A stretch of 50,192 bases of DNA, taken from a virus. Position 1 is the first letter of the stretch. Each line of letters starts with the position of its first letter. The stretch lies in IMG/VR virus record IMGVR_UViG_3300034989_000079; one strand, given 5' to 3'. A model generated the notes under the pieces. It had not been told where the DNA came from and did not search any database. It saw only the letters and a list, made by a program, of their open reading frames with translations. Shown here piece after piece: positions 45,140-46,694 of this stretch. The position numbers and the translations under genes are program-made.

Positions 45140-45349
45140 ATGAAGGGATATGGTTTGCCTAGGAATAATGATGTTGAACATCCAGATGTGGCTGATATAT
45201 GTCTGTATGGATTGAATACATCATCTGGTGGTAAATGTTATCAAAAACCGGGGTCTAAAAGTAGGTCAAGGAGGATTTGGAAGAAGAAAGAGAGAAGAGA
45301 AGCAAGAAGATATTGCATGATTTTTTTTGAAGAAAGGATGGATTTATGA
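45140..45349 (+). CDS. hypothetical basic protein
   Basis: RBS gaggaaagaccATG. Confidence 0.5.
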   Translation: MKGYGLPRNNDVEHPDVADICLYGLNTSSGGKCYQKPGSKSRSRRIWKKKERREARRYCMIFFEERMDL

Positions 45350-45864
45350 AAAAAGACGGATGGGATCGAGCTGAAGAAAGATGGAAGAGAACTGCAAGAA
45401 AAGGACCATGGTCATTATTTGCGAAAATTGTTGTTACTGTGCTTTTATTGAGTGTAATTTTTGGAGCAATTGGTATGGTTTGTGGGACAGCAAAGGAGGC
45501 TGTCCAGGTTGCAAGGGATGAATTTGGTCCAAAAGCACTATTGAAAAAGTATGAATGGTTCAAAGATATGGCTGCAACTTGTGATAAGTTGAGAGCAAAT
45601 ATCAAAGTAACAGAAACTAGAATTGGTCAAATGGAACAGGATTACAGTGGAGTTCCTAGAAATGAATGGGATAGAGTTGATAAACAAACGATGTCTCAGT
45701 GGAAGGCCGAGTTCGCAGGAATAAAAGGAGCGTATAACGATGCTGCTTCTCGTTATAATGCTCAAATGGCCAAGTTTAATTGGAGGTTTACAGAGATAGG
45801 GTCTTTGCCTGAAGGGGCAACAGAACCACTTCCTAGGGAGTTTAAGCCGTATGTTGAGAAATAA
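45346..45864 (+). CDS. membrane-anchored protein (N-in, single TM, periplasmic/extracellular domain)
   Basis: basic N-terminus then IVVTVLLLSVIFGAIGMV TM helix; ATGA-coupled. Confidence 0.5.
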   Translation: MKKDGWDRAEERWKRTARKGPWSLFAKIVVTVLLLSVIFGAIGMVCGTAKEAVQVARDEFGPKALLKKYEWFKDMAATCDKLRANIKVTETRIGQMEQDYSGVPRNEWDRVDKQTMSQWKAEFAGIKGAYNDAASRYNAQMAKFNWRFTEIGSLPEGATEPLPREFKPYVEK

Positions 45865-46033
45865 TAGAAAGATCATAGAATCAAAAAGAGGTTTTACGCT
45901 TGTTGAATTGATGGTAGTTTTGATTATATTGGGGATTATGTTTTCCATTTCCGTTTATGCAATAAGAAGTTTTTTGTCAGAGAATAGAAATATTGATGAG
46001 ATTGTAGAAGATGAAAATGTAATAGAAATGTAG
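45851..46033 (+). CDS. type IV pilin/pseudopilin-like mini-protein with prepilin N-terminal cleavage/methylation motif
   Basis: MLRNNRKIIESKRG|FTLVELMVVLIILGI: basic leader ending in G, then F+1 and E+5 in a hydrophobic helix. Confidence 0.55.
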   Translation: MLRNNRKIIESKRGFTLVELMVVLIILGIMFSISVYAIRSFLSENRNIDEIVEDENVIEM

Positions 46034-46073
46034 GTAATTATTTGGTTGTAAACCAAGAAAGGAATGATGAGTT

Positions 46074-46694
46074 ATGAAAAGGTTGTTTTTTGTTGGATTG
46101 TGTGTGATTTTTGTTGGATGTATACCTGATTTTGGTGAAAAAGAAAATAAAGCGCCACGATCAAAATCTGGGGTAAAGGCGGCTAGAGTAAAAGTAAAAA
46201 CGAATGAAAAAGGTTTGACGGTTGAACAAGAAAATGTTGGTGCTCGTTTGAAAAATGATAGTGATGGAACATCAATAAAGCATTTGTATCTTGTTTCTGC
46301 ATATACAGGAGATGTTCTTGTTTATTCGACTGTGAAGGGGAAAGTAACATCTTCAGGTAAAAGATTGACACCATATACTGTTGCTGCTGGAGCTATTTCT
46401 GATGGTCATGGTAATATAAACCATTATGGAATTCCTATTGTTGTTAATGGTACACAATATAGAACATCAGAGATTCTTCAAGATGATGGGACATATGGTC
46501 ATTCAATGGAATATTTGTTTTGGCATGATATAAATGGTGTTTTTAGAAAAACATATGTTACGGGTGGAATAATGCCAATTATTAGTGCTGAACCAATGGC
46601 TTTTCCAAAAGTTATTTTGAATGTGGATGATTCATGGTCGCCGAAAAAAAATAAGTCAGATGATGCATTATCTTCAAAAAAAAAATCTGAATAA
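46074..46694 (+). CDS. secreted protein / putative lipoprotein
   Basis: signal peptide MKRLFFVGLCVIFVGC with lipobox-like FVGC; RBS aaggaatgatgag. Confidence 0.45.
   Translation: MKRLFFVGLCVIFVGCIPDFGEKENKAPRSKSGVKAARVKVKTNEKGLTVEQENVGARLKNDSDGTSIKHLYLVSAYTGDVLVYSTVKGKVTSSGKRLTPYTVAAGAISDGHGNINHYGIPIVVNGTQYRTSEILQDDGTYGHSMEYLFWHDINGVFRKTYVTGGIMPIISAEPMAFPKVILNVDDSWSPKKNKSDDALSSKKKSE

Follow-up and report, generated by a model that had tools for sequence, protein, structure and literature searches.

What is a gene that encodes a prepilin-type signal, and hardly anything behind it, doing in a viral genome, and does its product act alone or together with the proteins encoded on either side? The question is raised by a 60-amino-acid (aa) open reading frame (ORF) in IMG/VR virus record IMGVR_UViG_3300034989_000079, the 50,192 nucleotides (nt) of which are referred to here as the window. 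It lies at 45851-46033, between ORFs at 45346-45864 (here called A2) and 46074-46694 (A1), and all three are on the + strand. The original prediction, made from the letters of this DNA, had described them as an envelope-targeted trio in which a type IV prepilin N-terminus is flanked by a single-pass membrane protein and a lipobox protein, and had proposed that the short product might interfere with host type IV filaments.

A real gene for a prepilin-type mini-protein

The short gene (45851..46033, +; mini-prepilin gene in the following) comprises 60 codons plus the stop codon, and its product consists of MLRNNRKIIESKRG and, after the predicted cleavage site, FTLVELMVVLIILGIMFSISVYAIRSFLSENRNIDEIVEDENVIEM. 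It scored 34.4 bits (E 1.3e-8) against the Pfam model N_methyl (PF07963), for which the gathering cut-off is 21.2 bits, and likewise 34.4 bits against the NCBIfam model TIGR02532 (cut-off 16.3). The leader (residues 1-14; 45851..45892, +) carries a net charge of +4, and prepilin peptidase is predicted to cut after G14; the leaders of relatives are shorter (MKAKRG, MKRG, MSKG, and MKKG). It is followed by a hydrophobic helix of the alpha1-N type (residues 15-38, FTLVELMVVLIILGIMFSISVYAI; 45893..45964, +) with F+1, T+2, and E+5. In a rule-based check, 16 of the 16 residues after G/FTLVE (the slash marking the predicted cleavage site, here and below) were hydrophobic or small. All that remains is an acidic tail of 22 aa with a net charge of -5 (residues 39-60, RSFLSENRNIDEIVEDENVIEM; 45965..46030, +), which is predicted to be periplasmic. 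The notion of a type IV prepilin N-terminus (G-1, F+1, and E+5) with almost nothing behind it was thus borne out, and the class III signal, rejection of which by predictors had been named as one finding that would speak against it, passes both curated models.

The 60-aa ORF is a genuine gene under selection, and it encodes a prepilin-type mini-protein. When all six frames of the window were translated, the strict prepilin motif was found once, compared with not at all in 100 codon-shuffled windows. G-1, F+1 (F15), T+2 (T16), and E+5 (E19) are invariant in 19 mini-prepilin sequences of 43-60 aa from five lineages. A search of 5.8 billion proteins returned 15 close homologues, all of them 52-60 aa long and annotated with PF07963 only; not one of the 15 is the N-terminus of a longer protein, the other outcome that had been held against the original prediction in advance. 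The tail motif NRN.DEI.EDENVIEM is retained in relatives at 65% identity, and comparison with the copy in locus L069, the A2 of which is 84% identical, gave a ratio of nonsynonymous to synonymous substitutions (dN/dS) of 0.21 at a dS of 0.73. In L069 and L070, two mini-prepilin genes are arranged in tandem between A2 and A1 (at 4001-4159 and 4166-4324 in L069). The second L069 product, MKMSDEG/FTFVEVLLVIAIVGLLSWIVWPYAKKMFDEYEFSTYEFSEISKIE, is divergent and ends again in an acidic tail, as do the mini-prepilins of L011, L013, and L050.

As a sequence feature, the mini-prepilin belongs to the prepilin-signal family. That it is itself a pilin or pseudopilin can be ruled out: the C-terminal globular alpha-beta domain is absent, and the equivalog scores (GspH, 34.3 versus a cut-off of 80; GspG, 26.7 versus 88.85; ComGC, 18.5 versus 75) are far under the threshold. 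Compared with the pseudopilins of type II secretion systems (T2SS) and the pilins of type IV pili (T4P), only the N-terminal 25-40 residues align, in partial, below-cut-off matches to the GspH, GspG, PilA, and ComG models. Assignment to the Flp/Tad pilins was likewise discarded; the EY motif is absent (G/FTLVEL, with Leu after Glu), and no Flp family was among the Pfam matches. Nor would read-through or frameshifting join the mini-prepilin ORF to A1 in the window, where, by inspection, the frames differ and stops lie between them.

A2 and A1 form a conserved gene pair

The genes on either side of the mini-prepilin gene, A2 and A1, are an obligate, widely conserved, unannotated pair. Among 100 distinct loci containing A1, 99 also contained A2, and the two adjoined each other in 98 of these 99 when gaps holding a mini-prepilin gene were counted as adjacent. 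In 90 of the 99 paired loci, the gap was shorter than 150 nt, irrespective of whether A2 preceded A1 (57 loci) or followed it (33 loci), and stop and start codons often overlap. Two apparent A2-A1 fusions (P0260 and P0263) were set aside as likely artefacts of frameshifts or gene calling. What had been seen as a trio of envelope-type proteins therefore keeps its envelope character in all three members, whereas its composition has to be redrawn: it is no chance neighbourhood, the flanking genes are the obligate pair, and the mini-prepilin is a third part that may be absent.

The pair was found in three settings, namely, viral contigs of up to 370 kb, phage-like contigs binned into metagenome-assembled genomes of the CPR and other groups, and multi-megabase chromosomes of Poribacteria, Obscuribacterales/Melainabacteria, and Chroococcus sp. 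FPU101 (genome contigs L089-L095, L104, L105, L107, L109-L111, and L119). In Obscuribacterales/Melainabacteria, A1 is duplicated in the order A1'-A1-A2. The chromosomal pair has housekeeping neighbours (dehydrogenases, an ABC transporter, an M50 peptidase, and a sigma-70 factor), and DDE transposases adjoin it in two of the three loci examined for this. Neither A2 nor A1 corresponds to a family in Pfam, PHROG, NCBIfam, or PADLOC, and nine module proteins searched against PADLOC-DB gave nothing better than E 0.025.

A2 (45346..45864, +) encodes a predicted bitopic inner-membrane protein of 172 aa, laid out as a basic cytoplasmic N-terminus, one transmembrane (TM) segment, a periplasmic helical hairpin, and an invariant C-terminal peptide. 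The TM segment (residues 28-46, IVVTVLLLSVIFGAIGMVC; 45427..45483, +) has a Kyte-Doolittle mean of 2.77, and the net charges at its N-side (+5) and C-side (-1) predict an N-in/C-out topology. In the AlphaFold2 (AF2) model (pLDDT 87.6), helices span residues 21-60, 62-99, and 110-143, which corresponds to the TM helix and an antiparallel hairpin, followed by an extended tail; structural matches were to generic coiled coils only. The C-terminal peptide, G..LP.GA..PLPREFKPY (45799..45852, +), is modelled by AF2 as extended and non-helical and is a candidate docking motif. Across 62 sequences, P155, G157, P161, L162, P163, R164, and Y169 are invariant. More than 200 homologues with 41-97% identity were detected. 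Membership of A2 in the LemA family (PF04011) was considered and dismissed, as neither the LemA model nor the solved LemA fold gave a significant match, and a profile search of the PDB returned PilN only, at E=1.

A1 (46074..46694, +) encodes a predicted lipoprotein of 206 aa in which a basic linker and one helix are combined with a conserved core rich in beta structure. Its signal peptide and lipobox (MKRLFFVGLCVIFVG-C16; 46074..46121, +) conform to the PROSITE PS51257 rule (FVGLCVIFVGC with Cys16, and K/R within the first seven residues), which predicts lipidation. The single-pass membrane protein and the lipobox protein named in the original prediction had thus been recognized correctly. 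Cys16 is conserved at 90% or more in 64 homologues. At E<=1e-3, 1163 homologues of A1 were found among 90%-identity clusters; at 50% identity, A1 has 396 clusters. Invariant residues number 26 and include the loops GKVTSSGKRL.P and EVLQDDGTYG.S. The structure model of A1, which is of moderate confidence only, found one unnamed viral protein of 175 aa (E 2.8e-5, TM-score ~0.4) in a fold search of BFVD, and a profile search of the PDB returned neither PilP nor GspC. A distant homologue of A1 is the lipoprotein gp29 of Microbacterium phage Floof (hidden Markov model E 2.9e-15). Floof gp28, a bitopic helical protein encoded 5' of gp29, is similar to A2 in architecture; its hhalign probability was 1.2%, and homology is not claimed.

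The pilin-type helix as a recurrent addition to the pair

Mini-prepilin genes adjoin the A2/A1 pair in at least four lineages, in differing gene orders, and have been duplicated once. The order A2-mini-A1 is found in the window, in L011 (mini-prepilin of 53 aa, A1 57% identical to that of the window), in L013 (47 aa and 48%, respectively), and in L069-L073; the order is mini-A1-A2 in L047, mini-A2-A1 in L050, and mini-A1 in L106 and L122. In L106, the mini-prepilin ORF overlaps A1' out of frame. Where the gap between A2 and A1 exceeds 150 nt, it is occupied by one or two mini-prepilin genes in eight of nine cases. All N-terminal class III motifs in these ~10-kb loci lie directly beside or inside the module; the remaining matches to the motif expression are few and internal to long ORFs. 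The fraction of loci with a mini-prepilin gene, ~10% of those examined, is rough, and the number of independent gains is a minimum because of A1 homologues of the plain type that are known as proteins only. In the window, the start of the mini-prepilin ORF overlaps the 3' end of A2 by 14 nt, which suggests that the two are expressed in a coupled manner.

The same type of helix also occurs fused to A1 in cis. Among the 120 A1 homologues that are closest to the window protein, six have a pilin-like N-terminus that replaces or precedes the lipobox, for example, P0098 (MKKA/FTLIELLVV), P0059 (MKRRG/FTIVELFVV...CGSGC), and P0103 (G/WTTIEVIIV), and 5 of 64 aligned A1 members match PF07963, the best with E 6.7e-7. 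In a distance tree of the A1 core, the fused forms are scattered, each being nearest to relatives of the lipobox type. E+5 is retained even in fused forms without G-1 (P0025 and P0092), and P0048 and P0059 hold both the prepilin motif and a lipobox. P0059 and P0092 are located on phage contigs, where the next gene encodes 153 and 166 aa, respectively, and is A2-like by size alone. As to the remaining anchors, a lipobox with Cys, or a relaxed form of it, is present in ~110 of the 120 A1 homologues, and P0027, P0288, and P0301 have plain TM helices. This variety (lipobox, pilin-like helix, and plain TM helix) would place the site of action of the A1 complex at the outer side of the cytoplasmic membrane.

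A co-variation of the acidic mini-prepilin tail with a basic C-terminal extension of A1 was considered and set aside, as it is confounded: the three longest A1 tails belong to one clade, that with the order A2-mini-A1. The basic tail is absent from A1 of L004, a close relative, and from those of L047 and L050.

The occurrence of one type of helix beside A1 in some lineages and fused to it in others is evidence of the Rosetta-stone type, drawn from sequence comparison, that the two work together. Because the same helix is fused to some A1 homologues, the mini-protein most likely acts with its neighbours rather than alone. The mini-prepilin is thus very probably a genuine prepilin-type accessory subunit of the A2/A1 module.

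Genomic setting of the module

All genes of the window are on one strand, and the families matched by its larger ORFs are those of phages (tRNA nucleotidyltransferase, thymidylate synthase and kinase, DHH phosphoesterase, and a UvsX-like recombinase). The mini-protein recurs unchanged, and in the same gene order, on 21 metagenomic contigs, which reach 173 kb in length. The window is therefore a portion of a large uncultured tailed phage, and it corresponds to an early or nucleotide-metabolism region, not to one for lysis or structural proteins. A nucleotide search found no DNA-level similarity between cultured phages and positions 44000-48000. There are no tRNAs in the window, no prepilin peptidase gene was seen among the window ORFs scanned, and scans for promoters and terminators around the trio remained at chance level.

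An invariant palindrome, CGAACTCGAGTTCG, is present in nine exact copies in the window (0.04 expected). The copies, 14 nt each, start at 3493, 9701, 16656, 22054, 27920, 32631, 39389, 44898, and 47758. The last two, at 44898..44911 (5' of the block holding the trio) and 47758..47771 (3' of a gene for an RlaP-like protein), follow each other directly and bracket 44939-47710, a block that holds the trio and the RlaP-like gene; palindrome positions, including that of the copy at 44898, are conserved in relatives L069-L073. In all six copies with inspected surroundings, the palindrome is intergenic, its flanks not being conserved, and several copies lie 10-25 nt 5' of a ribosome-binding site and start codon. 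Its function may be that of an operator, or of an RNA stem-loop, delimiting expression units.

Upstream, a highly basic ORF of 69 aa (45140-45349, +; containing SRSRRIWKKKERREARR) overlaps the start of A2 by 4 nt (ATGA). It is retained in close relatives, a gene with a Pyr_excise domain taking its place in L069, and it is outside the conserved module. Downstream of the trio are genes for an RlaP-like nucleotidyltransferase (46730-47710; PF10127, phrog_388), a DUF3268 zinc-finger protein with a weak match to Lar restriction alleviation (47843-48289), and a protein of 161 aa with a weak, antitoxin-like SocA_Panacea match in the precomputed annotation (48773-49258); these three look like genes for host takeover or counter-defence. 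Farther upstream, an 884-aa protein (40300-42954, +) contains the shoulder domain of the major vault protein (PF11978, E 3.6e-24) together with a Vault_3 repeat. All relatives share this protein in conserved form, and its matches in the phage collection are to huge uncultured phages of 462-735 kb only (LR756500, LR756501, and LR756503; 36-37% identity over 95-99%); a vault-like protein is unusual in phages. In L004, the SNF2-type helicase (16684-19806) is 1040 aa long, compared with 589 aa elsewhere, and contains an intein with a LAGLIDADG endonuclease domain. Short prepilin ORFs were also seen in other surroundings: in L168 (2711-3995), one is flanked by lipoproteins of 99 and 273 aa, and in L148 (3016-4117), by a membrane-anchored protein of 292 aa. 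The large neighbours in both loci resemble SPFH/band-7 proteins, by eye only.

Discussion

How might a prepilin-type helix serve the A2/A1 module? The mini-protein would insert into the inner membrane, and the host prepilin peptidase would trim its leader of 14 aa. The mature helix of 46 aa, its acidic tail exposed to the periplasm, would then join an A1/A2 complex at the periplasmic side of the inner membrane and, as a mimic of a pilin, either couple this complex to the T4P or T2SS machinery of the host or compete inside it. Its most likely purpose would be to disable pilus-dependent entry of competing phages, that is, superinfection exclusion. From the gene, its signal, its conservation, and its linkage to the module as observed, we infer processing, binding to A1/A2, and an effect on host filaments. 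The chain as a whole, a peptidase-processed pilin mimic that links A2/A1 to host type IV filaments, is accordingly put forward as a tentative proposal, one that may well be right but for which we would not claim an even chance. Rather improbable, in our estimation, is the bolder version in which A1 and A2 constitute a new envelope system of large phages, Poribacteria, Melainabacteria, and cyanobacteria, with A1 as a headpiece carried by a pilin-type helix in cis or in trans (a split pseudopilin) and plugged into host filaments. If true, this would represent a new class of type IV filament-associated effector that lets phages take over or block pili and T2SS.

Several observations weigh against a link to host filaments through the module. 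Approximately 85-90% of the modules lack a pilin-type helix, and the core function of the pair is therefore independent of it. The mini-prepilin tails of L047, L106, and L122 are not acidic, the model of A1 does not have a pilin-like fold, and no T4P or T2SS genes were present near the module in any locus examined. Finally, a survey of 80 IMG/VR loci with the motif GFTL[VI]EL[ML] yielded 63 distinct prepilin-like ORFs, 11 of which are no longer than 80 aa in their predicted mature form (e.g., in L168, L148, L202, and L141), and A1/A2 was within 3 kb in none of the 80 loci.

Short prepilin ORFs thus occur without A1/A2 within 3 kb, and activity on their own is therefore conceivable. The mini-prepilin might then be independent of A1/A2, and the locus a cluster of envelope-directed accessory genes. 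A headless subunit could stall or cap pili or pseudopili, it could saturate the prepilin peptidase, or it could lower pilin expression by mimicry at a PilS-type sensor. Kilmury and Burrows are said to have found in 2016 that the N-terminal pilin helix alone suffices for PilS sensing. PilS-type kinases read the pilin pool of the membrane (PMC6058289). A 59-aa counterpart with cytoplasmic-looking neighbours exists in Pseudomonas phage Ab06 (ORF_028), and the same idea was put forward by Sztanko et al. for truncated PilA proteins of phages (P-PilA; PMC12952977). Such a solitary role nevertheless appears unlikely for the window protein. It leaves unexplained why, in four lineages or more, mini-prepilin genes directly adjoin the pair, and do so in different orders, which neither chance nor loose clustering accounts for, and why cis-fused A1 variants exist; the translational overlap with A2 also suggests coupled expression. 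We likewise consider it unlikely that the class III-type helix is just an interchangeable anchor and the mini-protein an intramembrane subunit of A1/A2 unrelated to type IV filaments, the module being directed at a target universal to envelopes, for example, peptidoglycan or lipid-linked precursors. This would agree with the diversity of A1 anchors described above, with the presence of the module among housekeeping genes of cell chromosomes and of an A1 homologue in phages of the monoderm Microbacterium and Arthrobacter, with the absence of T4P/T2SS genes nearby, and with the invariant charged loops of A1 (SSGKR and QDDGTYG), which suggest a conserved ligand. However, the buried E+5 and the G-1/F+1 site, needless for a mere anchor, are invariant in all mini-proteins, E+5 persists even in degenerate fused forms, and A1 has a lipid anchor of its own wherever a mini-prepilin gene is present.

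Two further explanations are far less credible. A gene for a type II membrane protein with helices in the periplasm that adjoins a lipoprotein gene, the stop and start codons often overlapping, is reminiscent of two-component spanins (lambda Rz/Rz1), with A2 as i-spanin, A1 as o-spanin, and the mini-prepilin as an accessory. A2, with its TM segment (28-46) and helical hairpin, indeed has the features of an i-spanin, whereas A1, a highly conserved, beta-rich protein of 190 aa, is not the short proline-rich protein expected of an o-spanin. A lysis pair is very improbable, moreover, in that no endolysin or holin family was found near the module in L001, L007, L009, L011, or L013, the gene order is reversed in one third of the loci, and the TM or pilin-like anchors of some A1 homologues point to the inner membrane. 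The pair is also found among housekeeping genes in Poribacteria, Obscuribacterales, and Chroococcus chromosomes, and an A1 homologue occurs in phages of monoderms. The existence of fused forms, two of which (P0048 and P0059, with motif and lipobox) look intermediate, and the out-of-frame overlap of the L106 mini-prepilin ORF with A1' could in turn be read as gene fission that left the mini-prepilin ORF as a functionless remnant N-terminus of an ancestral pilin-helix-A1 fusion. Debris of this kind would hardly show purifying selection of the strength reported above (dN/dS 0.21), a tail motif conserved at 65% identity, invariant G-1, F+1, and E+5, tandem duplication in L069, or retention in lineages the A1 of which is 48-57% identical to the window protein, so there is scarcely any likelihood left for it.

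Returning to the mini-prepilin as a filament-directed partner of A2/A1, precedents exist for its parts. The alignment subcomplex of T4P combines the bitopic coiled-coil proteins PilN and PilO with PilP, an inner-membrane lipoprotein that has a disordered linker and a beta domain, and it contacts the alpha1-N helix of pilins. The resemblance to A2/A1 is a lead only, to which neither sequence nor fold comparison lends support. T4 Imm, Sp, and other membrane proteins for superinfection exclusion are, like the trio, small proteins of the envelope, the genes for which lie in the early or accessory part of a large phage of the virulent type; they differ in that they have no homology to the trio, do not resemble pilins, and lack conserved counterparts in cell chromosomes.

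Phage-encoded pilins as such have already been noted. A precedent for the poisoning or capping of host pili, as suggested in the original prediction, is provided by phage FimU minor pilins (P-FimU), which become part of the pilus and stop phages that bind its tip (Sztanko et al., Cell Rep 2026, PMC12952977). They differ from the mini-prepilin in being full-length minor pilins of ~210 aa (F10 gp011) of F10-like Pseudomonas phages, for which incorporation and defence have been shown experimentally. The same study reported truncated PilA genes of ~60 residues in six virulent Pseudomonas phages and proposed incorporation or inhibition of assembly for their products (PMC12952977); one such truncated gene, Ab06 ORF_028 (59 aa, MKRKKG/FTLTEVMIVLAILGILASIL...), was confirmed here. 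Truncated P-PilA and the mini-prepilin have in common a class III signal, an N-terminal helix with only a short charged tail, and a non-temperate large phage as the source, and the roles proposed for them are alike (incorporation without receptor sites, or inhibition of assembly). The mini-prepilin joins this group by architecture only, as the sequences are similar in the motif alone (59% identity over 27 residues). In contrast to the mini-prepilin, which is embedded in the A2/A1 module, truncated P-PilA of Ab06 has no adjoining A1/A2 pair.

The closest functional analogy appears to be the split pilin of Geobacter, which consists of PilA-N (GSU1496, 61 aa) and PilA-C (GSU1497) (Shu et al. 2016, PMC5174107). 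PilA-N comprises the helix only and is encoded beside a beta-sheet protein that has a signal peptide of its own and is exported separately; the order is sometimes reversed and fused relatives exist, all of which parallels the mini-prepilin and A1. The analogy is incomplete, however, because A1 lacks the C-terminal beta-sheet fold of pilins and most A1/A2 pairs occur without a helix. For the A2/A1 module and its repeated coupling to a pilin-type helix in cis and in trans, no published description was found; truncated phage pilins, in contrast, had been described before (Sztanko et al. 2026).

Pili are major phage receptors as well as virulence factors, and phage proteins that replace or disable them are a newly recognized route of competition between phages. 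With A1 and A2, helix-only phage pilins gain candidate partner proteins, and the locus offers elements that can be mutated, namely, G-1, E+5, the acidic tail, and the C-terminal peptide of A2. Beyond the phage itself, the analysis flags a widespread envelope module of unassigned role in large phages and in several little-studied bacterial phyla.

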